A stretch of DNA of 45,311 nucleotides. Source: Acidimicrobiia bacterium (lineage in GTDB: Bacteria > Actinomycetota > Acidimicrobiia > Acidimicrobiales > Ilumatobacteraceae). The DNA lies in contig JAYTVF010000423.1 of the NCBI GenBank assembly GCA_043744155.1, positions 1 to 45,311 of the forward strand, in the 5' to 3' direction. The notes under the pieces were generated by a model, which saw only the letters and a list, made by a program, of their open reading frames with translations, had not been told where the DNA came from and ran no database searches. Below are positions 1 through 15,246 of this stretch, one piece after another. The position numbers and the translations under genes were made by a program. The stretch's first letter is position 1. Each line of letters opens with the position of its first letter.

Positions 1-29
1 GTTCGGCGGAATCTGAATGCCTGAATTTC

Positions 30-1238
30 TTGGCGGAGTGTAACGACACAAACCCCTGTGCATCAGTGACATCGAGGCACACCATGACCATCTCACTCAC
101 ACCCAGCCCCCGAACCGAATCGATCTCCCGTCACCAACTTCTTGTATCAAACGGAGCGCAAACGCCTCTGTATAGGAAGCCGACTGGAGTGGATCAAGGA
201 GGAGAAGCCATTTCCGACTGGAACAGCCTTTCCGGCGAGCATGCGTCCTGGGTGGCTGACGGCCGCCCAGGAGGATTGACTCACTTCGTGACTCGAGCCG
301 TGACCAGTGGTGTCACCGGCGATTCGCCCCTGGGTCGGGCCGCCGCCGCCCTCATGGCGTTGCGTCCGCAGCGATTCCCTGCCGCCCCTCCCGCCACCTT
401 GTGGCAGCGACTGTCGGCGGAGATCGAAGCCGCCGCTACCAACCCGATTGATGTCGTCATCGCCTTTGGATGCGGATGGCGCCGAGAGGTGTTCGTCGGC
501 ACAGGCGCGGGATGGCTCGGACGGTGGAACCCGGCCATCACCGAATTGGTAGCCATCGTGCGAGCCGCTACCGAGAGCGCCCGGCATCTGCTTTCCACCG
601 TTGTGCCCGAGCTGGAAATAGATCGAGACGACATCGTGGAATTGCCATCGCTGATGGCCGTCGGTTTGATGGGTAGTTGCGACTGCGAGCACCACGTGCG
701 CGGCTGCCGGTCAGGAGATCGCTGCACCCGGCGATGCTGTTTTCCCGATCACGATCTGGCTGACTGGGATCCGGCTCACGTGGCGTTTCGGGCCTTTGTC
801 GACCAAGCCGTTCGCGGCGAAGCCATCGCCACCCTGCGCGGCGGAGCGTTCGCCGAATCGATGCTGTATCGCCTATTGGAATCCGACGGCCGAGTTCTGG
901 TGCGCAAGGTGGAGGTGGCCCGGTGCCGCCAGTGCCGCACCGACTTCGAGGGCCCACGCTGCCCCGCCCCCGACTGTGGCGCCTGGGCCGACGAGGCCAC
1001 CCCACGGCGGGCCCGTTCGAACTGGCTGATCGTGCCCGAAGTAGTGGGTGGCCCGTACAGCGAGGTCAGCCGACTGGTTTGCGGTGACCAAGGCTGCGCT
1101 CGGCTATTCCCCAAACGACGGGACCCCCGCTGTCCCACCTGTGGTTGGGAACCCCCGCCCGATACCCACCCGAAGTCGGCGTCGGTGTGGCTGCGTCTCG
1201 CCCGGTCCAGCGTGGCAGGAGGCAGCTATGTCGACTGA
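30..1238 (+). CDS. Hypothetical Cys-rich protein with two zinc-ribbon-like modules; first gene of a 4-gene overlapping cassette
   Basis: ORF track 30..1238. The frame is open to the left window edge and the first start is TTG at 30, so the true start is uncertain (in-frame ATG 84; GTG 189 preceded by AGGAAG). Motifs read in the translation: CDCEHHVRGCRSGDRCTRRCC, CRQCRTDFEGPRCPAPDC and CGDQGC...CPTCGW. The stop overlaps the next gene's ATG by 11 nt. Confidence 0.55.
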   Translation: MAECNDTNPCASVTSRHTMTISLTPSPRTESISRHQLLVSNGAQTPLYRKPTGVDQGGEAISDWNSLSGEHASWVADGRPGGLTHFVTRAVTSGVTGDSPLGRAAAALMALRPQRFPAAPPATLWQRLSAEIEAAATNPIDVVIAFGCGWRREVFVGTGAGWLGRWNPAITELVAIVRAATESARHLLSTVVPELEIDRDDIVELPSLMAVGLMGSCDCEHHVRGCRSGDRCTRRCCFPDHDLADWDPAHVAFRAFVDQAVRGEAIATLRGGAFAESMLYRLLESDGRVLVRKVEVARCRQCRTDFEGPRCPAPDCGAWADEATPRRARSNWLIVPEVVGGPYSEVSRLVCGDQGCARLFPKRRDPRCPTCGWEPPPDTHPKSASVWLRLARSSVAGGSYVD

Positions 1239-2019
1239 AGTCATCCAACGCCTCGAAGCGCTTGGTCCCTGGGCGCCAGAGGAAGACACGCGCCTCATCG
1301 AGACCGAATCGGCCATGGCCATCATCGAGCGAATCCCCAACGGTGACGGCACCGTTATCGTGCTGCTCTCGGTTCGTGGTGCCGATACCCCGGGTCCCGA
1401 TGAGGTCGTGCTCACCGACGCATCGGGCCAGCGCCACGTCGGTACCCGCACCCGTCGCGGCCAATTGCGCTTCGACGATATTGCCGCCGACGGGTTCACC
1501 TTTGCCGTGCCATTGGCCACCGTCACCTCGCTGGCGACCTTTGTGCGAATCGATCGAGTGCTGGCCCACGCAGCGGCATCGGGCAGCCGAGTGATCGCCG
1601 GTTCGTTCCAGAGCCGGGACAACTCCATCGTCACTCGTATCGAAGAGAACGAGGAGGGTCGGCTCATCGTCGACCTCAGCGCTCCGACGGGATGGCACGC
1701 CGATCAATTGGTAGAGCTGCGATGGTCGGCCATCACCGTGGATGGCGTGGCCATGGTACGCACGTTGCTCTCGCCCCTGGCCGCGTCGATGGGTAAGGGT
1801 TTCACGGCCCGCTACGACTTGGGCAGCGTGCTTGGCGCCGACGCCATCGAGGTGCAACCCGCCGAACCAGCCCCCTCCGAAGCCCTGACGGTGGCAGCCG
1901 TTCGGGAAGCATTCTCGCTCTTGCTGTTCGGCTCAGCCGTTCGCGCCTGGGAGCGGCTGGCCGCCGCGGTTAGCGACGCCGAGGTGCGAGCGGCGATCAC
2001 GAAAGGTCTGAACCAGTGA
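1228..2019 (+). CDS. Hypothetical protein (about 263 aa), no family recognised
   Basis: Internal ATG at 1228 of ORF 1048..2019 (MSTEVIQRLEALGPW...), preceded by GGCAGGAGG. It overlaps the upstream stop by 11 nt, and its TGA overlaps the GTG of the next gene (GTGA at 2016-2019). Confidence 0.6.
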   Translation: MSTEVIQRLEALGPWAPEEDTRLIETESAMAIIERIPNGDGTVIVLLSVRGADTPGPDEVVLTDASGQRHVGTRTRRGQLRFDDIAADGFTFAVPLATVTSLATFVRIDRVLAHAAASGSRVIAGSFQSRDNSIVTRIEENEEGRLIVDLSAPTGWHADQLVELRWSAITVDGVAMVRTLLSPLAASMGKGFTARYDLGSVLGADAIEVQPAEPAPSEALTVAAVREAFSLLLFGSAVRAWERLAAAVSDAEVRAAITKGLNQ

Positions 2020-3740
2020 GCACGTCACTGGACGCCAACGCCCGATTGGGGGCCATGCTGTCGGGCCGACTGGACGAACGGCGAGATTTTGCCTGGTTAG
2101 CGTCACCCCATGGGCTGGCGTGGGTCTGTCGGTCGGTCTTGCAGGGCGGCCCCGCCGAGGTTCTGACCGACCCGAATCTGGATGAACTGCTGGCCCTGCT
2201 GGATGACTATCTGCCCCACCTGGCCGGCCACTCCGGGTCGGATCGTGCGCGGGCGCTGGTATCCATCGCCAGTGGCCGGCCCGATCTGGCCCGCCGCGAG
2301 TTCGGCTCCATGGAAGCCGTCGAGGTCGTTACCCAACTGTTGACCGGCCGCTCACCCGAACCGTTGGGTCAGGCCACCGCGGCGGCCCTGACCAGTCGCC
2401 ACGCCGACGGCCAGGTGATCGACCTGGCGCTGACCTTGCTGCCCGGACCCCCGGTCATCGTGCCTGATGTGCGCGCCGCCCCGCTGATGCGCTGCGATGA
2501 CGTCTTTGCCCAAGCCCTCCGCGACGCGGTGGAGGTGGCCGGCAGGCAGAGCACCGGGACCGTCGTATGGGCCGCGTTTTCGCAGCGCACGCGGGCGCCG
2601 CTCGATGTCATCGTCGGCCCGTCCGTCGGCCTCGCGGCTGCCCTGGCCGCACGCCGGCTGACATTGCGAAATGCGGCGCCGCTCGACCCGAGCTGGGTGT
2701 TCACTGGCGCCATCGACCGGCAGGGCCGCACCGTCAGCTTGCTGGATGCCGACGCCGATACCACCTCGTACCTGGCCAAGGTGACGGCGGCCGGTGATCG
2801 ATCCGTCATCGTGCCGGCCGTAGACGCCGGTGCGGTCAGCGAGATGGCAATGCGCAACAGTCTGCCGGCCAAGGTGGTGGGCGCGGCCACGGTGGATGAG
2901 GCCGAACTGCTGTTGACCCGTCACCTGGCGGGCAAGATCGGCTGGGAGCGGGCGTTGGCCGGCCGACCGGTTGACCCGCACGCACATCGCAAGGTGGGCC
3001 TGGCCTTGCTGGCCGCCGTCGTGCCGCTCAGCCTGGTGCTTATCGCAGGGTGGTGGGCCAATCACAAGTGGCAGGACCGCCAGGCCCGCGCCCGGGCCCA
3101 CGGTGCCGTGGCCACCATTCACGCCGATGGCACCACTTTCGACATCTTCCGATTCGAGGTGTCAAACGCTCAATATCGGGCGTGCGTCGCCTCGGGTCCG
3201 TGCGAGGCCGCCCGGGTTGACGGTGTCACGGTGGACGACGGTGACCCCAGCCTCGGCCCGTATCCCGTCGTTGGTGTCACGTGGCTGCAAGCCGCCACCT
3301 TCTGCGACTGGGTCGGCGCGAGGTTGCCAACGTTCACCCAGTGGCAGCAAGCGGTTGAGGAGCGCGGTCAGAACGAGTGGCCAATGAACGTTAAGGACCC
3401 GCAACTTTTGGGCGATCGGCCAAAACCGTGGATCGAGCCGAACCCGGCAGCGCTGCCTGGACTGGACGTCGTGGCCTATCTGATCGGCAATGTGCAGGAG
3501 TGGACCAACACGGTGTGCACCAGCAGCTGCCAACCGCAACCGCCCGGAAACCGAAACGTTCTGGGGACGGTGCGGATCGTGGGCCTGGACGGCACGTCAA
3601 TCAGCAGTCCTCAGGTGTATCCACCCGGCGACGCCAGCTGGCTGGAGCTGGACCACAACCCTGACGATTTCGTCAATCCAAAACATGGCGCAGCGACCCT
3701 TGGGTTTCGCTGTGCCTCAGAGCCAGGAAAGCAGATATGA
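2016..3740 (+). CDS. Multidomain membrane protein: N-terminal helical region, Lon (S16)-like Ser/Lys protease domain, single TM helix, C-terminal FGE/SUMF1-like (formylglycine-generating-enzyme fold) domain
   Basis: ORF track 574 aa. VIVGPSVGLAAALAA resembles the Lon GPSAG catalytic-Ser motif (Ser203). FTGAIDRQGRTVSL resembles Lon TGEITLRGxV. YLAKVTAAGDRSVIVP resembles Lon GGLKEKLLAA..IKTVLIP (Lys254). Hydrophobic helix VGLALLAAVVPLSLVLIAGWW at about aa 327-347. FGE-like motifs: FRFEVSNAQYRAC, YPVVGVTWLQAATFCDWVGARLPTFTQW, GNVQEWT, LGFRC. Confidence 0.75.
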   Translation: MSTSLDANARLGAMLSGRLDERRDFAWLASPHGLAWVCRSVLQGGPAEVLTDPNLDELLALLDDYLPHLAGHSGSDRARALVSIASGRPDLARREFGSMEAVEVVTQLLTGRSPEPLGQATAAALTSRHADGQVIDLALTLLPGPPVIVPDVRAAPLMRCDDVFAQALRDAVEVAGRQSTGTVVWAAFSQRTRAPLDVIVGPSVGLAAALAARRLTLRNAAPLDPSWVFTGAIDRQGRTVSLLDADADTTSYLAKVTAAGDRSVIVPAVDAGAVSEMAMRNSLPAKVVGAATVDEAELLLTRHLAGKIGWERALAGRPVDPHAHRKVGLALLAAVVPLSLVLIAGWWANHKWQDRQARARAHGAVATIHADGTTFDIFRFEVSNAQYRACVASGPCEAARVDGVTVDDGDPSLGPYPVVGVTWLQAATFCDWVGARLPTFTQWQQAVEERGQNEWPMNVKDPQLLGDRPKPWIEPNPAALPGLDVVAYLIGNVQEWTNTVCTSSCQPQPPGNRNVLGTVRIVGLDGTSISSPQVYPPGDASWLELDHNPDDFVNPKHGAATLGFRCASEPGKQI

Positions 3741-4738
3741 CCACACCCGCACAACCCTCCAAACGCGCTCCCGCCCTCTCGGCCACGGTCAATACCGCCG
3801 GGAAACCTAGTCTTCCGAATCTCGATCTGACGGCTCCGGTGCCGTTGACCGCGGCCCCCTATTGGCGGTTGAACGACAAGGATCCCGGGCATGTGTTCGT
3901 AGAACATGATGAGGGCGAACTCACCTTCAGAGTGACCATTTCAGGATCACCCGAACGGGTCAAGGCCTACGTCATGTCGGCAAAGATCTCCGTCGGTGCG
4001 GTGCCCTCCGCCGCGGCCATGGGGGAAACACCGCCCACCTTGCCCGTGCTTCGCGGCAGCATCCAGTCGGCATTGGAGGCTTTGGGAGCCCCGCCTGATG
4101 GTGCACCCGGGCTGACCTACGTGGAGTTAGCCGACCAGGCAGGGCTCGACCCGAATGATGTTGCTCGCCAGGCCACCGCCTATGTCTATGAAAACTTCGC
4201 CCAACGGCTGCGCAACGGTGAGCTCTCGATCGAGGACCTGAAGAATGTGCGATTCACCCGAAAACTGTCGGCGGCGATGCGCACCGTCGCCTGGCCGAAC
4301 CCGCCTACGGGGCAACACCTGACCATCGAGTTCTCGCTGGTCCGGCGTCCGCAAGCGGCAGACGGGGCAGACGTCGCCGATCACGCCACAACCGTGCGAT
4401 CCCTGAGGGCGGATGCGGCGGATGCGGCGGTAGCCACGGTGTTCGCCGGTGCATCGGTGGCAGGTGTCTTGTATGGCCAGAACGATTCCGACGGCTACCT
4501 TGGCACGTTCATCAACTGGGTGGAAACGAAGATCAACGTGTCTCGCGGCAGCGTGACCGCCGCGCTCTTTCGGACCAACGGTGCTCGCAATTCTCCTCAG
4601 CCCATCAACGCCGCGGCCACACCGCCGCTCGGTCTCGGATTGAACGGGTCGGAATCGGTCACGCTAGAGGTCGTGAACGACGCCAACGGACAGTCGATCT
4701 ATTCAGGCACCGGTCGGGGCTGGAAGAAGATCTACTGA
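3737..4738 (+). CDS. Hypothetical protein (333 aa), last gene of the cassette
   Basis: ORF track. Its ATG overlaps the upstream TGA (ATGA at 3737-3740). No motif recognised. Codon usage looks typical of the high-GC host. Confidence 0.6.
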   Translation: MTTPAQPSKRAPALSATVNTAGKPSLPNLDLTAPVPLTAAPYWRLNDKDPGHVFVEHDEGELTFRVTISGSPERVKAYVMSAKISVGAVPSAAAMGETPPTLPVLRGSIQSALEALGAPPDGAPGLTYVELADQAGLDPNDVARQATAYVYENFAQRLRNGELSIEDLKNVRFTRKLSAAMRTVAWPNPPTGQHLTIEFSLVRRPQAADGADVADHATTVRSLRADAADAAVATVFAGASVAGVLYGQNDSDGYLGTFINWVETKINVSRGSVTAALFRTNGARNSPQPINAAATPPLGLGLNGSESVTLEVVNDANGQSIYSGTGRGWKKIY

Positions 4739-4898
4739 CCGCCGGTCGTCGCCGTCTGGCGTTTCCTCGGTTGGCCACTTAGCCCGGCGCATCGCTCGCC
4801 GATGACCTACGGCCTGACATCGTTGAATGGCTCCGATCACTACGGCCCAGCATTACTCTTAAACTCGGACAGCAGGTCCGTTCACCGTAGTTGGCTGA

Positions 4899-5040
4899 GT
4901 AGTCGTGGAGGCCGAGAACGCCCGGTTGAAGAAACGGGTAGCGAACCAGGCGTTCGATATTGACCCGGTCTGCACCATTGGGCCGATCCACGCCAACCCG
5001 ACGGTAGGAGGGGTTGTGCGCGCCATCACCTCGCTCTAGT
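4899..5040 (+). pseudogene. Possible IS3-family OrfA (transposase N-terminal/leucine-zipper part) remnant
   Basis: A short frame below the ORF-track cutoff reads VVVEAENARLKKRVANQAFDID..., reminiscent of the ENxxLKxxxAxxxLDxxxL coiled coil of IS3 OrfA proteins. It sits in a lower-GC spacer. Weak call. Confidence 0.25.
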
Positions 5041-5107
5041 CTGACGAAGGGGAAGGATGCTCTGGTGACGATCCGGACATCGCCAGACATGAAATGATCG
5101 GGGACAC

Positions 5108-6301
5108 ATGAACGACCTCAGCAGTGCCATCGACGAAATTCTTGATCGCGTCGTATCAGATCCGCAGCCAGTCGCAGGGGTTGCTGCGGTCGTCACCAAT
5201 CGGGCCGGAAACATCTACGAAGGGGCCCGCGGCGCGCGGCGGCTGGGGAGCGGTGATGATTTCACCACCGACACGGTGTGCGCCATCTTCTCCACCACCA
5301 AAGCCATCGGTGGTACCGCCTGTCTGCAACTGGTGGAGCAGGGACTGCTCGACCTGGACGCACCGGCTCGGGAATACGTGCCCGCGATCGCCAAACTGCA
5401 GGTGCTCGACGGATTCGACCCCGACGGTCAGCCACGGCTGCGCCCGCCGAAGCGGGACATCACCACTCGCCATTTGCTCACCCACACAGCCGGGCTGGCC
5501 TATGACTTTTTGAACTACACGTACAAGGGGTTAGCGGAGGACCACGGTCAGGCCAGCATCATCACCGGCACCAGCGCCGCCCTGCAGTCGCCGTTGCTCT
5601 TCGATCCGGGTGATGAGTGGGAATATGGGTCCAACATCGATTGGGCGGGCCAAGTGGTGGAGGGTATTACCGGACGCCGTCTGGGCGAGGTGTTGGCCGA
5701 CACCGTCTTCGGTCCGCTCGGTATGACGTCGACCGCGTTCACCATGACGCCGGATATGCGGGCACGTCTGGCCACCGTTCACGCTCGCACCCCCGACGGT
5801 CTGGTGCCGATGGATGGCTTCGAACTGCCATCGGACCCTGAGGTGCACATGGCCGGGCACGGCCTGTATGGCACGGTCGACGACTACGCCAAGTTCATCC
5901 GTATGTGGCTCAACGACGGGCGGGCCCCCGGCGGAGAGCAGGTGCTCCGGCCCGAAACGGTGGAGATGGCCGCCCAAAACCATCTACCCGTCGGCATGCA
6001 CATCAAGATGCTGCCCGGGGCCATCCCGGCGTATTCCAACGATGCCGAGTTCTTCCCCGGCATGCCCAAAACGTGGGGCCTCACGTTCATGATCAACGAG
6101 GAAGATGCCCCGACCGGCCGCCCGGCCGGGTCGCTGGCCTGGGCCGGTCTCGCCAATCTGTACTACTGGATCGACCGGAAGAACGGCATCGGAGGGTACT
6201 GGGCCACGCAACTGTTCCCCTTCGCCGATGCCACATCCGTAGGTGGCTACCTTGACATGGAAACAGCGGCCTATACCCACGCCCTTCAGCGCGCCGGGTA
6301 G
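5108..6301 (+). CDS. Serine hydrolase, beta-lactamase (class C/esterase-like) family
   Basis: ORF track 397 aa. SxxK nucleophile motif in AIFSTTKAIGG. Overall similarity to beta-lactamase-fold esterases. Paralog of 7835..9013. Confidence 0.85.
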   Translation: MNDLSSAIDEILDRVVSDPQPVAGVAAVVTNRAGNIYEGARGARRLGSGDDFTTDTVCAIFSTTKAIGGTACLQLVEQGLLDLDAPAREYVPAIAKLQVLDGFDPDGQPRLRPPKRDITTRHLLTHTAGLAYDFLNYTYKGLAEDHGQASIITGTSAALQSPLLFDPGDEWEYGSNIDWAGQVVEGITGRRLGEVLADTVFGPLGMTSTAFTMTPDMRARLATVHARTPDGLVPMDGFELPSDPEVHMAGHGLYGTVDDYAKFIRMWLNDGRAPGGEQVLRPETVEMAAQNHLPVGMHIKMLPGAIPAYSNDAEFFPGMPKTWGLTFMINEEDAPTGRPAGSLAWAGLANLYYWIDRKNGIGGYWATQLFPFADATSVGGYLDMETAAYTHALQRAG

Positions 6302-6763
6302 TCGCTGCAGCTTCCCGCCACTGCTTACCCCTCGAGGGTTCGGCGTTTGCCGATGTGCGAGGCGGACCGACGGGCCCGGTCAGCTGCGGTAGTCGGTGGT
6401 GGCCGCGAGGTCGGCCGCTTGCTGCATCGATGCCAACACGACTGGGCCGAAGGAATCGGGAATCGCGGGCGATAGTGCTCTCGCCCGTCCATCCACGCCG
6501 CCAGTCCGGGTACATCAAGCTCGATCACAGGTTCTCCGCTTCGATCTCCAGAAATTCGGCGAATTTCGCTCGGGCCGGGTCTCGACGTTTGGGCAGATGG
6601 CCGGTCGGCCACGTCTTTGCGCACCTTTAGGTTATCGTTGTGCTTGTCGATGGACCACGCGGCGTAGAGAACGAACAGGCGGAACGGGAATAGCACGAGA
6701 AGATCGACGCCATCTGAGCTCCTCATCTGCCGGGCTTGACGAGCGAGGACTCTCGAAGCCGAA

Positions 6764-7159
6764 CTACTTCCGAGGTAGCGTTGGTGGCGAGGTCCCACTG
6801 TCGCCGGGGAACGGCACGGGAACCGGGGCAACCGTGGTCGTGGTGCCAACGATTGCGTCCTTTGGGGCCCCTGATGGAGGAAGCGGCTTGGGCTCGACGT
6901 AGGGTACGGTAGAGCGAGTCAAATCAATATCAGCTGGGCTTTTGACAGTCGCTGGCAGAACTCCTGTCGATAGAATTGACAAATCGGTGGGGCTCATGTC
7001 CCAAGCCAGAACTTTCCAACTGTCGCCTTGCTTTGCCATTACCAAGTCGTACCTCCAAGCAACCCCATCATTAAAACCCTCATGTAGCGATGGCGCCCCG
7101 GCAACCCCATCCGATGCGACTTCCCTGACGAGGTTCCACGGACTCGCAACGAGGCCCAC
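6764..7159 (-). pseudogene. Hypothetical ORF, or the broken 3' part of a decayed gene, in a low-GC insert
   Basis: ORF track 131 aa with a GTG start. The same frame stays protein-like upstream with no start codon (FEFGDRHFARAEATHLSLAGGVDAVAV...) up to a stop at 7286-7288. This suggests a frameshifted continuation of the amidase-domain gene upstream. Confidence 0.3.
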
Positions 7160-7403
7160 TCGAATGTTGCCGTCAGCCCGTCGCCGACCATCGGTTACGG
7201 CAACGGCGTCGACCCCACCGGCGAGGGACAGGTGCGTGGCTTCGGCCCTGGCGAAATGACGGTCACCGAATTCGAAATCAAGAATTTATCGGTCGATCCC
7301 GGAGCTCGGGGCGAAATGATCCCGCAGATTCTTTGCCCTAGCCGCAGATTGCTTGGCAAGTGCCCCCGGGTTCGGTTTGGGGGGCTTCTTTGAACGGAAC
7401 GAC

Positions 7404-7814
7404 TCATCCAGATCGGCGGACCGAAGCCCACCGCTGGTCTCCGGTTGAGTTCCAGCCAACCTCAATAGCAGCGTGATCAATCACACCGTCGTTGGTCCAA
7501 TCAAAGAACATCAAGTCACCCACCTGTGCATCATTGTACATCGGGCGATTGGCGGGACTGCATACGGTGGAAAGGTACCCATTGGGGGCCTTAGTGAACT
7601 GCCCGTATAGCGCTGCTACACCATTCCAGGAGGCAAAATAGCTGGCACCATTGAAGTACCAGTTCAGAGCCGCCGTGTTTGATCTCAGACCGCCCTGCGC
7701 TACGGCCTGCGATGCGAAGTTCGTGCAGTCGTTGTCTCCTGCAATCGCAACGCTGGCGTAGATCGGGTTTCTTGCCTGTGCCCACCGGTCAGCGTAGTTC
7801 GCAACACAGAGCAC
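7404..7814 (-). pseudogene. Amidase-domain (Amidase_6/PF12671-like) fragment, probably N-terminally truncated
   Basis: C-terminal part of ORF 7404..8111 reads YADRWAQARNPIY...DNDCTNFASQAVAQGG...VGDLMFFDW..DGVIDHAAIEV, which matches the putative-amidase-domain signature. The rest of that ORF is only an alternate frame of the esterase gene. The first usable start is GTG at 7814. Confidence 0.45.
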
Positions 7815-7834
7815 CCGTCGCCGATCGGAAGCGG

Positions 7835-9013
7835 TCAGCGGTTGCGATAGACCGCGCTCTCGAAGTCGACGAAGCCGGGGTAGGACGATGCGTCTTGGAA
7901 CGGCAGGATTTGCGAGCCCCAGAAGCCTCCGATGCCGTTGCGACGGTCGATCCAGTAGAACAGGTTGGCGAGCCCGGCCCACATCAGCGACCCGGCGGGC
8001 CGACCCGACGGCGTCTGGTCGTCGTTGATCTGGAAGGTGTAGCCCCACGACTTGGAGAGCCCGGGGAAGAACTCGCCGGAGTTCGACAAGGACGGAATCG
8101 ATGTGGTCCACCCGCCCGACTTCAGATCACCGAGCGCGTTGGCCGACATCATGTCCACGGTTTCAGGTTTCAGGACCCGACCATTCGGGCCGTTGCCGTC
8201 GTTCAGGAACATCCGAATGAACTTCATGTACTCACCGACCGTCGAATACAGACCATGGCCGCCCATGTCCATCGCTGGTGGTTGGGGAAGGGCCAGATCT
8301 GGCAGCGGGGTGAGCTTGCCGTCTTGCGCTCTGTCGTGGATCGTCGCCCGCCGGGCCTGCATGGACTCGGTCATCGTGAAGGCGATATCGGTCATGTCGA
8401 GGGGCCCGAAAACCCGCTCGGCGAGTACGTCACCGAGTCGCTTGCCCCGAACCGCTTCGACGACTTTCCCCGCCCAATCGATGTTCGCACCGTACATCCA
8501 GCGCTCGCCCGGGTCATGAAGGAGCACGGTGCGAATCGAGTCGTAGGTGCACGAAACGACGGTCGGTATGCCCTTGGCTGTTCGGTAAGCCAGATCATCG
8601 GCACTGAAAAACTCATACCCGAAGCCCGCGGTGTGGAGGAGCAGTTGGCTCACCGTGATGTCGCTTTTGGGTGCCCTGGTGATCGGCTGGCCATCGCCGT
8701 CGAATCCGACGAGCACTTCGATCTCTGCGATGTCGGGAACATGGCTCTTCGCTGGGCCGTGAAGGTCGACGAGACCCTCTTCGACGCACTGCATCACGGC
8801 CGCGCCGACGATCGCCTTCGTGGTCGAGAAGATCGCCATCACGGTATCGGTGGTCATCGCCTCGCCGGTACCCAGGTCGCGCACGCCCGCTGCGCCCTCG
8901 TAGAAGTTCTCGTTGCGGTTCGTGGCCATGGCGACAACGCCCGGCGCGCCGCCTGCGCGACCGACGGTGTAGTCAAGGATGTCGTCCATTGCGGTGGTCA
9001 CTGATGCTGACAT
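7835..9013 (-). CDS. Serine hydrolase, beta-lactamase (class C/esterase-like) family (paralog of 5108..6301)
   Basis: ORF track 392 aa. SxxK motif in AIFSTTKAIVG. By eye, about half of the residues are identical to the 5108..6301 product along its length. AAGGA lies upstream of the ATG at 9013. Confidence 0.85.
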   Translation of the reverse strand: MSASVTTAMDDILDYTVGRAGGAPGVVAMATNRNENFYEGAAGVRDLGTGEAMTTDTVMAIFSTTKAIVGAAVMQCVEEGLVDLHGPAKSHVPDIAEIEVLVGFDGDGQPITRAPKSDITVSQLLLHTAGFGYEFFSADDLAYRTAKGIPTVVSCTYDSIRTVLLHDPGERWMYGANIDWAGKVVEAVRGKRLGDVLAERVFGPLDMTDIAFTMTESMQARRATIHDRAQDGKLTPLPDLALPQPPAMDMGGHGLYSTVGEYMKFIRMFLNDGNGPNGRVLKPETVDMMSANALGDLKSGGWTTSIPSLSNSGEFFPGLSKSWGYTFQINDDQTPSGRPAGSLMWAGLANLFYWIDRRNGIGGFWGSQILPFQDASSYPGFVDFESAVYRNR

Positions 9014-9075
9014 AGTGGTTTCCTTCGTTTCGGGTGCGTGCGAATAGAGATCGAGTGATATGGGCTTCGGTGGAT

Positions 9076-9504
9076 TCAGTTCGCTGCGGCGTTGGCGAGT
9101 TTCGCCAGAACACCGTCAATTACATGGGCAATCGCGTTCACGCCCGGGTTGTCGAAGCGAGCGAGTGCTGGGCCAAGTTGGTCGTACGCCACGTGGGTCA
9201 CGTCGTCGGCGTCGGCATACAGGTAGATGCGAGTGGGAAGATAGAGCCCGACTTCGGGTCCGCCAGCTTCGAGCAGTTTGCGGGCGGTCAAGGGGTTGCC
9301 GATGATGAAGTGTTGGGCCTTCATTTCGATCGGTACCCGCGACATCACCTTGCCCCAGTTGAGGAATCCCACTTGGATCAGGTTGCTCCGCCCGGCCAGA
9401 GGTTCGATTTCTTCGGCGTACTCGGCGAAGGTCTTGGAGGCGCTGAGTTTGTCCATCAACACCTCGGTGCTGGCCTTGCCCAGTTCCGCTTGCAGGTCTT
9501 TCAC
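9076..9504 (-). CDS. DUF302 domain protein
   Basis: ORF track 142 aa (GTG start). FIIGNPLTARKLLEAGGPEVGLYLPTRIYLYAD..THVAYD fits the DUF302 fold signature. The N-terminus probably extends to about 9570 (see finding). Confidence 0.7.
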   Translation of the reverse strand: MKDLQAELGKASTEVLMDKLSASKTFAEYAEEIEPLAGRSNLIQVGFLNWGKVMSRVPIEMKAQHFIIGNPLTARKLLEAGGPEVGLYLPTRIYLYADADDVTHVAYDQLGPALARFDNPGVNAIAHVIDGVLAKLANAAAN

Positions 9505-10159
9505 CGCCTGGGCAAACGGCTTCGCCGAGGCAATATCTACGTGGATGTTCTCGAATGAAGTGTCAGTAATGACGAGGCTCCTTGGGTCGGCCGCATGCAG
9601 TTCAGCGGCAATGATGTTCTGATAGTCCGTGTAGCGGCACAGCTGCCAACGCTCGGCTGATGCGACGATGATCCTTCATGCCGAACCCACATGTTATAGG
9701 AGCGCCGACCTGGCGCACACAGTCGCTACTCCCTGGTAGATACCCCAAAATCGTACCCACGATCATCTTATCGACTTCTGGCCAAATGATTAACGTTTGA
9801 TATCCAATTCAGCCGGGCTTTTTGCTCCGGCGCTTCGGCCAGGGTCGAATTCCTCGACAGTTGGGTCAAGCGCACCGGGGTCGGTCTCAGCTACGTGCAT
9901 AATACCTTGGCCGACAAGCTGCGCGGCGATTCGGCGAGATCGAAGGCTGTCTCGACGTCGAACTTCGTGACGAACACCAGCGCAACCTCATTGGGCGACG
10001 CACGGACCCACGTCGCAGACCGGACGGTCAAGCGACTCAGCGAAACGGGCATCGCGCCGGAAGTTCTGGCATGCTCGGCCGTTCTGGGCGTGGGCGAAGT
10101 AGCGCTCCCAATGACTGCTGGTAAGGACGAATCTGTCTGCGCAGGTGTGCGCTAGAAGG

Positions 10160-11083
10160 TCACTTCCGTGGCGTCGGTGTCGAGGCCATGTCGATGAGTC
10201 CGGTTCGCGCCGATGGGAACCGAGGGGTCCATGCAGAGGCCGCCCGGATGGCACCGTTACTGACCCGGAGTGAGCGTGACAGGCCGGTCGATGGCATCGC
10301 CGGTCGAAGAAGTGTGAGTCGCCCTGGCCCTCGAACCCACGAGGTGGTGCTCGTGGCTATGGCGAGAGCGTCAGCAAAGCCCCGTTTCGTAAGTGGCTCA
10401 TCGTCAACGATGTTGTAGCAGCCGGGCGGAGTCCGCAGCGCTGCAACGATCGCCGATCCGGCGTCGGCGAGATGGATCGACGAGACGTAGCCATCGGCCT
10501 TCCCGAAGACGGGGGCGATGTGGCGGTGGGCCAGCCTGAGGAGAAGTTCGCTATGACGGGCACCGTGGCCGTAGAACCATCCGAAGCGAAGTACGACCCC
10601 TTCGCCACCCGCTGCTGTGAACCGCTCGGCGCTCGCTTCAGCGGCGATGTTGCCCTCGGCGGCAGGGTACGGGTCGAGCGCTACCGCCTCGTCGATCAAC
10701 GCATCTCCGGAGTCGGGATAGATCATGGCGATCGACTCTTGAATCACCCTGCTCACCCGAGCACGAAGCGCAGCCTCCACGACGCTGCGCGACCCTTCGG
10801 TCCGAACACGGTGACATTGCTTCCAAGCCCGATTGCTATTGAACCGCAGCGTTGACGGTAACGCCGAGGCGAGGTTTGCGACGGCGTCGTGCCCCTCGAA
10901 CACCTCAGCGAGCGCTTCGGGATCGAAGAGCGACGCGCTGACCGGCGTTGCGCCCGCGGCTGTGACCAGGCGGGTCTTGGCGGGGTTGTGGACGAGGGCC
11001 GTGACTTCATGGCCGGCCGCGACAAGGGCCTGCACTGCGTAGGGACCGAGTGCTCCAGTGGCACCAGTAACGAACACCCTCAT
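10160..11083 (-). CDS. NAD(P)-dependent epimerase/dehydratase-type SDR oxidoreductase
   Basis: Internal ATG of ORF 10160..11410 gives MRVFVTGATGALGPYAVQALVAAGHEV (a Rossmann GxxGxxG motif at the N-terminus). Alternative ATG at 11095. The upstream 100 aa of the ORF look non-coding. Confidence 0.8.
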   Translation of the reverse strand: MRVFVTGATGALGPYAVQALVAAGHEVTALVHNPAKTRLVTAAGATPVSASLFDPEALAEVFEGHDAVANLASALPSTLRFNSNRAWKQCHRVRTEGSRSVVEAALRARVSRVIQESIAMIYPDSGDALIDEAVALDPYPAAEGNIAAEASAERFTAAGGEGVVLRFGWFYGHGARHSELLLRLAHRHIAPVFGKADGYVSSIHLADAGSAIVAALRTPPGCYNIVDDEPLTKRGFADALAIATSTTSWVRGPGRLTLLRPAMPSTGLSRSLRVSNGAIRAASAWTPRFPSARTGLIDMASTPTPRK

Positions 11084-11506
11084 CGCGCTGTCCATCGGTC
11101 GGTCACTATGTACAAACGATAGTCGTCGGCAAGACGATCTCCTCTGGACTCGCTTCTCGGCGCTCGGCTGGGCGCACCGACTTCCCCATTTGTTGAGGTC
11201 GTCGCGTAAACAAAGTAGTAGCGCAGTAGCAATCTCTGTGGAGAGCCTACGAATTGACGGTGAGGGTAAAGAGGTTGCGGTTGATGGTATGGCTTTCCAG
11301 GTCGAACGTGCCTGCGTTCGTGGCCACGAATGTGGAGGCTGCTGCTGCACCCACTGAGGCTTTCGCAGTGAGGTTGTAACCATGGAGTTGCGCTCGCGTG
11401 GCTGCTCCATCGATCTCCGGTGCTCATCCCGATTCCAGGAACGTCAAGCCTCGATCACGTCGAGTCAACCTTGAAGACCCGGAACGATGCACCTCGGGTC
11501 TTTCGT

Positions 11507-11926
11507 CTAAGGCATCCAGGGGTTGGTGATCGTGATGCCGGTGTCGGTGAAGTCGTCGATGTTGCGGGTGGCGAGCACAGCTCCATGACTTCGACATGTT
11601 GCTGCGATCTGAGCGTCGGCCATGGTGATGGGACGGCCTGCGCGTTCGCGGCGAACCACGATGTCGGCGTAGTGGATGGCGGCCGTCTCGTCGAAGGGGA
11701 CCACGCGGTGGTCGAAGTCGTCGTTCAGCATGGCTTCGATGTGTTCGGCAAGATCGGTCTTTCGGGCGCCGTCTGCGAGTCGGGCGACGCCGTAGAGCAA
11801 CTCGGCGACGGTGATGGCGGTGAGGTGGACCTCGGCCGCTGGCTGCCGATCGACCCAGTCGATCACGGACTCGGCTGGTGCAGCGCGCATGAGTTCCGAC
11901 ACGACGTTGGTGTCGAGAACGATCAT
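11507..11926 (-). CDS. vapC: Type II toxin, PIN-domain ribonuclease VapC (FitB-like)
   Basis: ORF track 139 aa. MIVLDTNVVSEL..., a conserved acidic PIN residue in context (LDTNV) and a DDF motif near the C-terminus (ATRNIDDF). 4-nt overlap with the upstream antitoxin gene. Confidence 0.9.
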   Translation of the reverse strand: MIVLDTNVVSELMRAAPAESVIDWVDRQPAAEVHLTAITVAELLYGVARLADGARKTDLAEHIEAMLNDDFDHRVVPFDETAAIHYADIVVRRERAGRPITMADAQIAATCRSHGAVLATRNIDDFTDTGITITNPWMP

Positions 11927-12165
11927 GACAACGCGGCTGGTCTGGGGTGGCCGTTTCGTGCTGGCAGGTCGAGTTCTGCGCCACCGATCGTGGCGAACCG
12001 TTGCTGGATTCGGCGGCCGAGCCGATCGGCGGCCACCGGTTGGGTCAAGGTGTTACGGAGGATCTCGCGGACTTCGGCTTCCATCGACCGTCCATGTCGA
12101 GCAGCTCGGACGCGGAGACTTGCACGTAGCTCCTCATCAAGATCTCGAATTGTGAGCGTTGCCAC
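11923..12165 (-). CDS. vapB: Type II antitoxin VapB (FitA/Arc-type ribbon-helix-helix)
   Basis: ORF track 80 aa. MATLTIRDLDEELRASLRVRAARHGRSMEAEVREIL is a typical RHH antitoxin N-terminus. Lies immediately upstream of vapC and overlaps it. Confidence 0.85.
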   Translation of the reverse strand: MATLTIRDLDEELRASLRVRAARHGRSMEAEVREILRNTLTQPVAADRLGRRIQQRFATIGGAELDLPARNGHPRPAALS

Positions 12166-12199
12166 TGTGTCTCCCTACCGCATAGCCTTCAATGAAGTC

Positions 12200-12211
12200 A
12201 ATGCTAGCATT
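12200..12211. promoter_or_regulatory. Perfect 12-bp palindrome AATGCTAGCATT upstream of vapB (candidate VapB operator)
   Basis: Read directly from the sequence. Lies 35-46 nt upstream of the vapB start in a low-GC spacer. Confidence 0.4.
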
Positions 12212-12501
12212 AATCGCGTATTCTACGCAGTGCCCGAGAGTTGTTTCTCCATGTCTCGCAAATCACCCGTACACGACCCCGATGTTGGCGATCCTGGCTG
12301 GCATTCTGGCCGACGCGATCGCCTCTACCACGGCGAATAGCCCAAAGGCATCGGTTGGCTGATCGAGAGCACTGGTACGAGCACGTCGACCACTGGCCGG
12401 GGCTCGTGTCGAGGCCCCCGTTTCGTTTGATGCACTGCTCGGCATCTATCGCGATCGATGCCATCGTCGCTCTCTTGCCATCACGTTGCAACGCTTTCGA
12501 T

Positions 12502-12597
12502 GTCCGTCTCGCCGAGTTGCGGCACCTCGTGTTGCGTTTGAACGACCAGAACTCGACATGGGTATACCGGCGAATCCACGGTGAACTCGCGTTGCTC
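12502..12597 (+). pseudogene. Remnant of an IS481/IS3-type integrase-family transposase (N-terminal HTH region only)
   Basis: Within ORF 12241..12852 the stretch DVRLAELRHLVLRLNDQNSTWVYRRIHGELALL matches the common LRLARENPxWGYRRIHGEL signature. No catalytic rve region follows, because the anti-sigma gene on the other strand starts occupying the DNA at 12610. Confidence 0.4.
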
Positions 12598-12609
12598 CGG
12601 CTTGCGGGT

Positions 12610-13266
12610 TCACGCAAGCGACGCGCGCAGGAGAGTGTGTCCGGTTGTATCGCTCACGCCGAGGGCGATTGCCTGGCCTTTGTGAGCGGCCGTCGCAAGC
12701 GTGACGGTGAGTCGTTTGTCGCCGACGGCCATGAAGGTCCCGGCTGGCGTGCGAGTCCCGCCGGCGTCTTCCAACCATACGACGTGGATTCCGTCGGGGC
12801 GAAGACCGGCGACTTCGAGAGTGATTTGTGTTCCCCACGGCTTGTCTTCTAGACGGGCTGTTGCTTCGATCCCGGGAGCTCCGGATAGTGCTACCTGTTC
12901 GCCTCTTGCAGGTACTGACCCCCGGGACTGTGTACCGACACCGGCCACGACAACGAGTAGCGCCGCAACGGCGAGAAGGACCCGAACACGGGACCGGACT
13001 GCCTTGCGGTGGCGTTCGGCCTGAACTTGGTTGAAGAGGGCGGCCTCAAGGTGTCGCGGAGCAGAAAGGCGAGGTGCACCGACTCGAGAAGGGTCGGCCG
13101 ATGCCAGTAGCCCTGCTGTCTGCCTCAACTGCGTGAGTTCATGTCGGCAGCTCGGGCAGCCGTCGAGGTGGGCGATGACGGCAGGCGTCTCACGGTCGGA
13201 GAGTTGGCTGAGGGCAAACGTCGCGAGAAGGCCTTGCCATTCGCGGCATGCGTCAGAGGTTGTCAT
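12610..13266 (-). CDS. Anti-sigma factor: zf-HC2 (ZAS) N-terminus, one TM helix, RskA-like extracytoplasmic domain
   Basis: Internal ATG 13266 of ORF 12610..13434 (MTTSDACREW...). HLDGCPSCRHEL is an HxxxCxxC motif. TM helix VRVLLAVAALLVVVAGVG. C-terminal LEVAGLRPDGIHVVWLEDAGGTRTPAGTF resembles anti-sigma-K RskA. The start overlaps the sigma gene's 3' end by 14 nt. Confidence 0.8.
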   Translation of the reverse strand: MTTSDACREWQGLLATFALSQLSDRETPAVIAHLDGCPSCRHELTQLRQTAGLLASADPSRVGAPRLSAPRHLEAALFNQVQAERHRKAVRSRVRVLLAVAALLVVVAGVGTQSRGSVPARGEQVALSGAPGIEATARLEDKPWGTQITLEVAGLRPDGIHVVWLEDAGGTRTPAGTFMAVGDKRLTVTLATAAHKGQAIALGVSDTTGHTLLRASLA

Positions 13267-13867
13267 GCCAGCCCATTTCATCAAGAGTAAGTCGGAGTGC
13301 CTTGAGCCCGTAGAACAACCGACTACGAATCGTACCTTCGGGAACTCCGTGGCGTACGCCGATCTCAACGGCGGAGCGTCCCTCGAAGTAGGACTCGACG
13401 AGCGCGTTTCTGTGATCCTTAGTGAGTCGTCCAAGTGCTTCTTCCACCAGCCAGCCTTGCAGCGCTGTGTCGATCATTGCGTCACCGTTTTCGACCGGTT
13501 CAGTGCCAGACACAGCCACCGGAAACCGAACGGAACGGGTCCTGGCGACGTCGATAATGATGTTGCGGCAAATCGCGAAGAGCCAGCCTCGTAGCGACCC
13601 GAGGTTCTCATCAAAACGTTCGGCCGAACGCCAAGCTCGCATGAAGGTTTCTTGTACGGCTTCTTCAGCGAGGCCGTCGTCGTCAAGCGCGCGGCGGGCG
13701 TAGCCGTAGAGTTCACCGCTGTGGGCGGCGTAGGCGCGCCGGAGGAAACGTTCGTCGGCCAGGACCGGTTCTCCGCCGGTGAGTAGTCGAAGCCGGGGAA
13801 TCACGCCTTGTATACGGGCACGATGATCGGATCGTTCACTGGGTCGACGGAAACTCATGGGCACCAC
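13253..13867 (-). CDS. ECF (group 4) RNA polymerase sigma-70 factor
   Basis: ORF track 204 aa. Region 2 (LAEEAVQETFMRAWRSAERFD...LRGWLFAICRNIIID) and region 4 (SAVEIGVRHGVPEGTIRSRLFYGLKALR). Start is GTG 13867 or ATG 13858. Confidence 0.9.
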   Translation of the reverse strand: MVPMSFRRPSERSDHRARIQGVIPRLRLLTGGEPVLADERFLRRAYAAHSGELYGYARRALDDDGLAEEAVQETFMRAWRSAERFDENLGSLRGWLFAICRNIIIDVARTRSVRFPVAVSGTEPVENGDAMIDTALQGWLVEEALGRLTKDHRNALVESYFEGRSAVEIGVRHGVPEGTIRSRLFYGLKALRLTLDEMGWHDNL

Positions 13868-13996
13868 GACAGAAGGCGGTCAGTACATCGTGCGGCCAAG
13901 CGCACTCCAGCAATGAGCGACGTCAAAGTACTCCAAGTCTGCCCCATTACTTCGGGTCGGAGTCGCGACATCGCCGGGAAATCTTTGGGTGCCGTT

Positions 13997-14023
13997 TGAA
14001 CGTTTGGTGAGCTGCGCTCGTAA
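13997..14023 (+). promoter_or_regulatory. Candidate ECF-type promoter (TGAAC-N17-CGTAA) in front of the secreted-protein gene
   Basis: Read from the sequence in the divergent spacer. About 50 nt upstream of ATG 14074. Resembles the generic ECF GAAC...CGT architecture. Not validated. Confidence 0.3.
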
Positions 14024-14073
14024 CCGCATGTGACGAGTTGGGCTCCCGTCCACCGTCACGAAAGGACTCGGAC

Positions 14074-15246
14074 ATGAACAAGATACTGGTAGGACTCACT
14101 TGCCTTCTAAGCGTCGTTGTCACCGCCCCGGCAACAGCCGGAGCGTCCGCGGAACACGAGTCGGCGGGCCCGACCGTACATATCACCTCGCCCAGTCGGG
14201 CCTCGATCGCACCCGGGGAAGGGATACCGGGATACGGAAGTTTCAACGGGTCAGGGTTTGCGCTCAGTATCGAAGCCGAAACCCACGACACCGTGGGGGT
14301 AAGGGTCAAAGAAGCGCTCAACATCCGGCACACGGCCGCTCTCGGTCAAGCCAACCCGGACTTCCCCGGGCTGAACGTCACGATCGACAATGACCTAACA
14401 AAACCCGATGGTGGAATCATCCCCGCCGGAACCAACCTGGCGTCGCTCTTCAACATCGCAGGGACCGACGACACTCCCGGACCCGGCGTCACGGTCTGGG
14501 CCGGCTGGCACGTCCTGGAATCCGTCGCGCCCGGAACCAAACACATCACCATCAACGTCGCCGTCACTGACGAGGCAGGCCGCACCGGTAGCACCCAGCA
14601 ACGTTTCAAGGTCAGCGACCGAGCAGGGATTTCCGGTCAAGCACTCACCCCGACACCGGGCACTGTCAGCACCACAAATCTGGAGGACACAAACGGGCCG
14701 GGCGTTTCGATAAAGGCGCCCGAGGCACCGACCAGTATCGCGCTCGGAACTCTCCCTCAACCAACCTTGGCCAATGGGACGTTGTTCTTCCTACAGGTCA
14801 ACGCCACCGACAACGCCAACCACGGCATAGGCGTGAGTGAGAACGGGACTGGCAACGGGCTGATCGTTGACCCCACCCAAATCGGGGCGCACGGACCCAA
14901 CCGCAACTACCCCGGACTCAACGTCACGTTCGACGTCGGTCTGCGCCAACCCAACGGCAACCTCATCCCTGCCGGCCAAAACCTTGCACCGTTGTTCAAC
15001 ATCGCCGGCAGCGAACTTGTCCGCGGCGATCGGGGTAAACGCGAGAACGATGACCGACACGGCCACACCGTGGTGCGGACCGTTGCCGACTGGGTCATCG
15101 GTGGATCCCTTGTGCTCGCACCAGGCCAAACCGAGATCACAATCAATGCCACGGTCACCGACAACGCTGGATACACCGGCACCAAGTCCATCACCGTTGG
15201 CGTCAGCCCCAGCATCAGTGGACAAAACCTAACGCCGAACCCCTGA
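14074..15246 (+). CDS. Secreted protein made of two tandem copies of an unrecognised domain of about 170-180 aa
   Basis: ATG 14074 (AAAGGA upstream) gives the signal peptide MNKILVGLTCLLSVVVTAPATAGASA. Two internal repeats share GP.V.I..P, PGLNVT[IF]D, IPAG.NLA.LFNIAG, I.TINA.VTD.AG.TG and ISGQ.LTP. Confidence 0.75.
   Translation: MNKILVGLTCLLSVVVTAPATAGASAEHESAGPTVHITSPSRASIAPGEGIPGYGSFNGSGFALSIEAETHDTVGVRVKEALNIRHTAALGQANPDFPGLNVTIDNDLTKPDGGIIPAGTNLASLFNIAGTDDTPGPGVTVWAGWHVLESVAPGTKHITINVAVTDEAGRTGSTQQRFKVSDRAGISGQALTPTPGTVSTTNLEDTNGPGVSIKAPEAPTSIALGTLPQPTLANGTLFFLQVNATDNANHGIGVSENGTGNGLIVDPTQIGAHGPNRNYPGLNVTFDVGLRQPNGNLIPAGQNLAPLFNIAGSELVRGDRGKRENDDRHGHTVVRTVADWVIGGSLVLAPGQTEITINATVTDNAGYTGTKSITVGVSPSISGQNLTPNP

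Follow-up and report, generated by a model that had tools for sequence, protein, structure and literature searches.

A Lon-like protease domain joined by a transmembrane helix to an FGE-like domain, with a conserved partner gene, in Acidimicrobiia

Lon proteases that lack an ATPase and are gated by a ligand have only recently been recognised as signalling proteins, through CalpL in type III CRISPR. CalpL combines an ATPase-less Lon protease with a SAVED sensor, and ligand-driven filament formation activates it to cleave the co-encoded anti-sigma factor CalpT, which keeps the ECF-like sigma factor CalpS bound. In Bacillus subtilis, DdcP (YlbL) is a membrane-anchored, ATP-independent protease with PDZ and Lon domains that reportedly acts outside the cell, and in the DegS/RseP-RseA and PrsW-RsiW systems a membrane anti-sigma factor is cleaved in response to a signal by S1, M50 or PrsW proteases. 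LonC (MtaLonC / TTC1975) is an ATPase-inactive Lon without ATP-powered unfolding (PMC3391209, PMC13069640). FGS domains, in turn, have been proposed as lectin-like sensors of invaders or ligands in STAND systems (Kaur et al., PMC8195603; PMC13581612), and an effector-NTPase-FGS syntax of conflict systems has been described by Kaur et al. (PMC8195603; PMC7159879). Here we describe a gene, C, that joins a Lon-like protease domain to a formylglycine-generating enzyme (FGE)-like domain through a transmembrane (TM) helix. It lies in a stretch of 45,311 nucleotides of an Acidimicrobiia bacterium of the Ilumatobacteraceae (GenBank assembly GCA_043744155.1, contig JAYTVF010000423.1, positions 1 to 45,311 of the forward strand), the whole of which is referred to as the window. 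C is a new architectural variant assembled from known folds and not a new kind of biochemistry.

C is one uninterrupted open reading frame (ORF), in which an N-terminal region is followed by a Lon fold, a single TM helix and an FGE fold (Table 1). A preliminary description of this DNA had placed the fusion at positions 2553-3719, a span that lies inside the real ORF but covers only part of it, the ORF running from 2016 to 3740. The full-length homologues P0002 and P0003 are 65% and 59% identical to C, and the order of helical N-domain, Lon, TM and FGE recurs in 17 independent clusters at 50% identity from different metagenomes and metagenome-assembled genomes (MAGs). In these Lon-TM-FGE clusters the TM segment reaches Kyte-Doolittle values of 2.0-3.0 and has an Arg-rich stretch alongside. 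Since the family comparison shows the architecture to recur, the notion that C is an artefact, be it a frameshift or assembly fusion of two genes or a hydrophobic segment that is in fact buried, is effectively refuted; all that could be cited for it is that the full-length AlphaFold2 (AF2) model, built from three homologues, was uninformative, with a predicted local distance difference test score (pLDDT) of 34.9. This model was replaced by one of the Lon domain built from 28 sequences.

The AF2 model of residues 120-320 from the 28-sequence alignment had a pLDDT of 94.4 and a predicted template modelling score of 0.90. When it was compared with the PDB by Foldseek, the top 50 matches were exclusively Lon proteolytic domains, with E-values of 4.6e-11 to 1.3e-9 over ~190 aligned columns, template modelling scores up to 0.76 and 13-19% identity to the known Lon domains in these alignments. 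A family profile of the same residues searched against PDB sequences gave the same answer, its 46 best matches all being Lon protease domains, with LonC TTC1975 as the best (E 1.4e-4) and E. coli Lon P-domain (2.8e-4) and archaeal LonB (1.4e-3) among the others. The profile alignment puts Ser203 on the position of S679 of E. coli Lon (Ala in the S679A crystal construct 1rr9) and Lys255 on K722. Ser203 is invariant (48/48 aligned family members), Lys255 and Asp270 (VPAVD) are kept wherever a member extends to those columns, Thr230 (FTGAID) is found in 44 of the 48, and Gly201 and Gly205 are nearly invariant. Since the residues of the dyad region are kept while the representatives of the Lon module share just 20-37% identity overall, the active site appears to be under selection.

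The Lon kinship of C is visible solely by family profile and by structure. Single-sequence searches with its N-terminal half (Pfam, NCBIfam, phmmer against the PDB) returned nothing, the curated Pfam model Lon_C does not match C at E <= 1, and Lon_C is absent from the 25 families listed, by members matched, in a Pfam scan of 48 family members. The missing Lon_C match and the low identity to real Lon domains would suit a protein whose Lon-like domain has lost catalysis and serves as a scaffold, as in RadA/Sms or ComM, with C as a membrane-anchored binding or structural protein resembling PorK/GldK, and the best matches of its FGE domain are indeed structural proteins. The conservation of Ser203, Lys255, Asp270, Thr230 and the two glycines speaks against such a scaffold, which we regard as improbable. 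According to the model, residues ~120-314 form the whole of a Lon proteolytic fold, in which the Ser-Lys dyad is intact and under selection, and from the fold and the conservation of its residues we infer that C is proteolytically active. The preliminary description had anticipated a Lon/S16-like fold with a Ser-Lys pair and without an AAA+ module. Model, structure comparison and profile alignment bear out the fold and the homologous positions of the pair, neither AAA+ nor any other ATPase family was matched by the 574-residue protein in Pfam and NCBIfam, and the coordinates given for the serine of GPSVG (Ser203, nt 2622-2624) agree with ours. Its lysine had to be corrected, because the codon it named (Lys254, nt 2775-2777) encodes Ala and the lysine is Lys255 at nt 2778-2780; its limits for the domain (aa 180-300) were too narrow, and the comparison with Lon_C to which it pointed gave no match at E <= 1.

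With classical Lon proteases (MEROPS S16; LonA, LonB and LonC) C shares the proteolytic fold and the positions of the Ser-Lys dyad. LonA and LonB have an AAA+ module in front of this fold and LonC a degenerate AAA-like one, whereas C has a helical domain of ~119 residues; moreover, classical Lon carries the protease at the C-terminal end of an unfoldase, whereas in C it would form the N-terminal end of a receptor. DdcP resembles C as a Lon-type protease tethered to the membrane without an ATPase, but it has no lectin-like sensor. Residues 1-119 of C are predicted to be all-helical, the sole basis for this being the low-confidence full-length AF2 model, and a PDB search with them was without match. 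The idea that they form an adaptor (EAD/Death-like) shared with the neighbouring gene products A or B was rejected, as the PDB search was empty and hhalign found no profile similarity to either (probabilities <0.1%).

The TM helix lies directly behind the Lon module in 26 family members, and in these the 15 residues beside it contain 119 Lys and Arg on the N-terminal side compared with 68 on the C-terminal side. C has no signal peptide, and 326 residues precede its single TM helix. Its six invariant Cys are confined to the C-terminal domain, and the same N-terminal Lon module is also found in STAND NTPase proteins that have no TM helix. On account of the missing signal peptide, the positive-inside bias, the placement of the Cys residues and the cytoplasmic STAND-fused paralogues, the protease and the helical N-domain are predicted to be cytoplasmic and the disulfide-rich FGE-like domain to lie outside. 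This is consistent with the arrangement of sensor and protease across the membrane suggested earlier, and the hydrophobic helix then placed at nt 2994-3056 is retained, with a hydropathy mean of 2.53 and a position conserved in the 26 members.

In the C-terminal domain, Pfam PF03781 matches residues 366-531 (E 7.9e-15, 55.6 bits against a cut-off of 23.3). A profile of the FGE domain from 14 family members, searched against the PDB, found PorK/GldK first (E 3.5e-16), followed by human FGE (1.8e-10), pFGE/SUMF2 (1.7e-9) and TvpA (1.5e-8), so that the FGE fold named in the preliminary description is upheld. The catalytic, copper-binding Cys pair of FGE (C336/C341 in the human enzyme), the presence of which the preliminary description had proposed to check, is seen to be lost on alignment to the human protein: in the corresponding columns of 2aft (GGSYMsHRSYCYRYRC) the family profile has Cys at neither position, and C itself has no Cys between residues 505 and 566. 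The conserved Cys of the domain are 390, 396, 430, 501, 505 and 566; of these, C430 (FCDW) and C566 (GFRC) are invariant and align with C218-C365, a structural disulfide of human FGE, which is an enzyme of the endoplasmic reticulum lumen. The six are predicted to pair as 390-396, 430-566 and 501-505. Because the catalytic pair is gone, we read the FGE-like domain as a binding module and not as an enzyme.

An active C-terminal domain, either as FGE or as an EgtB/OvoA-like sulfoxide synthase, would give C a part in the maturation or quality control of exported proteins, and the PF03781 match, weak NCBIfam matches to EgtB and SenA and the names of the homologues could be taken in that sense. Besides the missing Cys pair, the NCBIfam matches reach just 27-32 bits against cut-offs of 350-420, a DinB domain was not matched in C and no sulfatase gene is present among the neighbours examined, so that we hold this to be highly improbable. 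We conclude that the C-terminal domain has, as judged from its sequence, an FGE/C-type-lectin fold without catalytic function, of a kind that fits an oxidising environment outside the cytoplasm. The FGE fold without the catalytic Cys pair and outside the cytoplasm is also seen in PorK/GldK (the ring lipoprotein of the type IX secretion system), pFGE/SUMF2 and TvpA, the variable protein of a diversity-generating retroelement (DGR); unlike C, these proteins carry neither a fused protease nor a cytoplasmic module attached through a TM anchor.

An exhaustive phmmer search with residues 1-318 of C against 1.84 billion representatives returned 46 relatives of the N-terminal module. The FGE-like domain is present in 18/48 aligned members, in 17 of them directly after the TM helix, whereas one member (P0014, locus L012) has the Lon module and TM helix followed by an NHL-type beta-propeller. 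STAND-type members carry AAA_16 (12/48) or nSTAND1 (6/48), some of them with WD40 or TPR repeats, and nSTAND5/6 also occurs among the domains of the family. No Pfam family covers the Lon module in the 48 members, the highest count being FGE-sulfatase with 16. All named homologues come from MAGs of Acidimicrobiales/Acidimicrobiia, and one Acidimicrobiales MAG, F1F2.bin.335, has no fewer than three distinct Lon-like genes, each on a contig of its own (L003, L005, L006). Searches of plasmid DNA and phage proteins found no relatives. Database entries give the homologues the names "SUMF1/EgtB/PvdO family nonheme iron enzyme", "formylglycine-generating enzyme", "AAA family ATPase" or "hypothetical protein", so that current annotation misses the protease.

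C comes third in a compact operon of four genes, A-B-C-D. Between A and B the stop and start overlap by 11 nt, B and C meet at GTGA and C and D at ATGA, and GGAGG stands a few bases 5' of the ATG of B. None of A, B and D contains a TM segment. Ten loci with the Lon module were compared, namely the window, two metagenomic loci closely related to it, four loci of Acidimicrobiales MAGs and three further contigs, of which one comes from an NCBI genome assembly. A profile of B finds a B homologue immediately before the Lon-like gene in 9/10 of these loci, irrespective of whether the C-terminal part is TM-FGE, a TM-NHL propeller (L012) or nSTAND1-WD40 (L011). The gene directly upstream of B is of two kinds. 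It is A in five loci (the window, L001, L002, L005 and L012) and an extracytoplasmic function (ECF) sigma factor in three, L004 (TIGR02937, E 5e-11), L010 (3.8e-10) and L011 (1.2e-21), the last with Pfam regions 2 and 4 as well. The C-terminal ~160 residues of B are conserved, and its N-terminus varies with the gene upstream: B proteins linked to A match the profile from positions 3-43 onwards, sigma-linked ones only from ~50-143, and the latter share an FDDxxLxxL..FDDI-like start of their own. C belongs to a small, unannotated, Lon-like family that keeps one partner gene and whose logic is plausibly that of CalpL.

Gene A has the motifs C-x-C-x-HH...CC-x-DHD and FVDQAVRG...GGAFAESMLYR and two C-terminal zinc-ribbon-like CxxC pairs; it has no match in Pfam, NCBIfam, PADLOC or the PDB, a profile search of the last included. 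D is 29-30% identical to its counterpart in L001 and 37% to that in L002, which is partial and ends at the contig edge, and has a weak N-terminal match in L003 (E 0.005); no match was found for it in Pfam, NCBIfam or PADLOC. Because the downstream genes in L003, L004 and L010 are at most marginally similar to D, which is conserved only between close relatives, we do not regard D as a constant part of the system. A match of the B profile to thymidylate kinase in the PDB (E 0.003) is marginal and was treated as noise, and a sigma factor beside the A homologue of L009 was not counted, being the C-terminal piece of a housekeeping RpoD/SigA that lies at the contig end.

Table 1. Coordinates of the operon genes and of the features of gene C in the window.
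Feature	Position (nt)	Strand	Description
Gene A	84..1238	+	384 aa from the ATG at 84 (mechanical ORF: TTG 30); soluble, Cys-rich
Gene B	1228..2019	+	263 aa, soluble; constant partner of the Lon-like gene, candidate substrate/anti-factor
Gene C	2016..3740	+	574 aa, GTG start; helical N-domain, Lon-like protease, TM helix, FGE-like domain
N-terminal region of C, aa 1-119	2016..2372	+	Conserved motifs W[LF]xxPxGLLxxCR, LDD, PSxRAxAL (family alignment)
Lon (S16-like) proteolytic domain, aa 120-314	2373..2957	+	AF2, Foldseek and family-profile search
Ser203 codon (GPSVG)	2622..2624	+	Predicted nucleophile; aligns with E. coli Lon S679
Lys255 codon (YLAKVTAAG)	2778..2780	+	Predicted general base; aligns with E. 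coli Lon K722
TM helix, aa 327-347	2994..3056	+	Kyte-Doolittle 19-mer mean 2.53, the protein's maximum
FGE-sulfatase/C-type-lectin-like domain, aa 356-574	3081..3737	+	Pfam PF03781; predicted extracytoplasmic, non-catalytic
Gene D	3737..4738	+	333 aa, soluble, fast-evolving, downstream of C

CalpL, as part of CalpL-CalpT-CalpS, resembles C in that an ATPase-less Lon-fold protease is fused to a sensor domain, and its system has the gene order of L004, L010 and L011, that is, ECF-like sigma factor, partner and Lon-type gene. Since B lies between ECF sigma factor and protease in these three loci, as CalpT does in CalpS-CalpT-CalpL, we propose B as a candidate substrate and anti-factor. With moderate confidence, we favour the reading that C is a sensor-activated, ATP-independent, receptor-type Lon-fold Ser-Lys protease that cleaves B and would be similar in function to CalpL-CalpT-CalpS; the gene order and the analogy with CalpL suggest the parts given here to B as substrate and to the regulatory output. 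The outside domain would bind a ligand, for which a glycan, an envelope component or a component of an invader are all possible, and binding would lead to clustering or a conformational change through which the Lon-like heads are assembled or activated. Classical Lon heads require oligomeric contacts, and clustering would supply these. The activated protease would then cleave B, the co-translated cytoplasmic protein that would act as an anti-factor, and so free its partner, the ECF sigma factor in three loci and A in the window and four others, which would switch the response on. In the STAND forms, where nSTAND1 or AAA_16 is combined with WD40 or TPR repeats, NTP-driven oligomerisation would replace the ligand-induced clustering.

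The two systems also differ. The SAVED sensor of CalpL is cytoplasmic and responds to cyclic tetra-adenylate (cA4), whereas the putative sensor of C is an extracytoplasmic FGE domain behind a TM helix or, in its relatives, STAND with repeats. C has no CRISPR context (no SAVED or CARF match to C in Pfam and NCBIfam, no cas genes among the window ORFs examined), and CalpL is absent from the sequence-profile matches of the Lon module, in which LonA, LonB and LonC are present. Since no similarity of B to CalpT, or of the sensor to SAVED, was detected, we describe C as working like the CalpL system and not as a member of it. The DegS/RseP-RseA and PrsW-RsiW systems differ from it in another way, as in C the protease itself would be the membrane receptor and B is soluble.

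Several observations weigh against a CalpL-like role. B has no match in Pfam, NCBIfam, PADLOC or the PDB, nor to anti-sigma families or CalpT, and the operon of the window contains no sigma factor, the gene upstream of B being A, which takes the place that the sigma factor has in the CalpL operon. One of the ten loci, L006, has a Lon-AAA_16-TPR gene (6260-10369, +) without B directly upstream, and homologues of A occur without B or C in L007 (4351-5394), L008 (8001-9083) and L009 (1238-2206). The charge around the TM helix of the window protein C, taken alone, is neutral (4 vs 4), to which the missing Lon_C match has to be added. PADLOC-DB 2.0 gave no match at E <= 1 for A, B, C or D, and the neighbourhood in the window, with beta-lactamase-family hydrolases, an epimerase, a GGDEF protein, transporters and GGT, consists of ordinary metabolic and transport genes and is not a defence island.

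The last two points bear equally on another reading, in which C is an effector of conflict or abortive infection, a toxic protease that would degrade essential host or invader proteins broadly as soon as the FGE-like or STAND sensor perceives an invader, with B (and D) as inhibitor, immunity partner or adaptor. The Lon module is found at the N-terminus, where STAND-FGS conflict systems have trypsin, caspase or TIR effectors (PMC8195603), its relatives carry nSTAND1, AAA_16, nSTAND5/6 and WD40 or TPR repeats, D is fast-evolving, as expected at a conflict interface, and the window also encodes a separate nSTAND1-WD40 protein. Weak relatives of the FGE domain outside the family combine Trypsin_2 or EAD1 with nSTAND1 and FGE. 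Like C, the STAND-FGS systems have a C-terminal FGS domain and an N-terminal protease effector, there trypsin or caspase; unlike them, C has no NTPase and has a TM helix between effector and sensor. They are often linked to DGRs, whereas no DGR-type repeat of the 3' coding region of C was found within positions 1-12000 of the window, a reverse transcriptase not having been specifically searched for window-wide. A Lon effector is mentioned (whole word "Lon") neither in Kaur et al. 2021 (PMC8195603) nor in the 2026 STAND survey or the 2024 DGR paper, and in Kaur et al. 2020 (PMC7159879), where "lon" begins a word twice, the terms "LonC" and "S16" are absent. The lack of PADLOC matches and of phage or plasmid relatives, the housekeeping surroundings and the missing repeat pair all speak against a conflict effector, and the recurrent ECF sigma factor beside B points to a transcriptional output, so that we think it rather unlikely. 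The effector and signalling readings are compatible and not mutually exclusive, as CalpL is both.

Going beyond C as a CalpL-like receptor protease, we tentatively raise the possibility that the Lon-like head and B form a previously unrecognised, portable signalling cassette of Acidimicrobiia, which could be driven by any oligomerising receptor, be it a single-pass membrane protein with a lectin-like FGE or NHL-propeller domain outside or a cytoplasmic STAND NTPase with WD40/TPR, and in which cleavage of B would release the ECF sigma factor or A. If so, A would belong to a novel class of transcription regulators or effectors, the cassette would do with Lon heads what apoptosome-like platforms do in activating caspases, and C would be a kind of transmembrane protease receptor for which bacteria offer no described example. 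The family would extend the principle of the Lon switch to transmembrane sensing and to STAND/NLR-like receptors, whose protease heads have so far been trypsin- or caspase-like, and would provide a three-part system (sensor-protease, B, and ECF sigma factor or A) in an actinobacterial class that has been little studied and is largely uncultured. The database names of the homologues can be corrected, and the function of the A and B families could become reachable through the link to Lon.

Some further features were noted in the related loci. The A family has the invariant motifs G-x-C-x-C-x-HH...C...CC-x-DHDL-x-x-W, F-x-DQAV-x-G-x-A and GAF-x-x-S...R-x-L, besides the two zinc-ribbon-like CxxC pairs. 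In L006 a separate A-B pair is found at 12832-14441 (+), 2.5 kb downstream of the Lon-like gene, and runs off the contig. In L007 the A homologue is followed at 6231-13394 by four consecutive large genes (796, 711, 791 and 875+ aa) with no Pfam match on record, which may be a paralogous array. Just upstream of A-B-C-D in L002, two paralogous proteins of 151 and 163 residues are encoded at 994-1449 and 1576-2067 (+), their N-termini hydrophobic and signal-peptide-like by eye; the window begins 3' of the matching position. Directly upstream of the sigma-B-Lon cassette of L004, a gene at 3385-5391 (+) encodes a protein of 668 residues with weak matches to the zinc-metalloprotease families Peptidase_M10 (E 2.8e-6) and Astacin (E 6.3e-6).

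Elsewhere in the window, the gene at 25083-28433 (-) encodes an nSTAND1 NTPase of 1116 residues (PF20703, E 1.4e-80) with C-terminal WD40 propellers, a receptor of the class to which the paralogues of the Lon module are fused. With only ~42 residues before the NTPase it has no fused effector, and no B-like ORF lies beside it, the B profile matching the window only at 1228-2016. A search of the window with Rfam found no RNA family. Two divergent paralogous genes for PF00144 serine hydrolases, at 5108-6301 (+) and 7835-9013 (-), are convergent and give rise to an inverted repeat of 252 nt with 71% complementarity (6023-6274 vs 7847-8098). At 12610-13434 (-), the window encodes an unrelated classical anti-sigma factor (zf-HC2 and RskA_C), and the overlapping ORF directly upstream of it, at 13253-13867 (-), may encode its cognate sigma factor.

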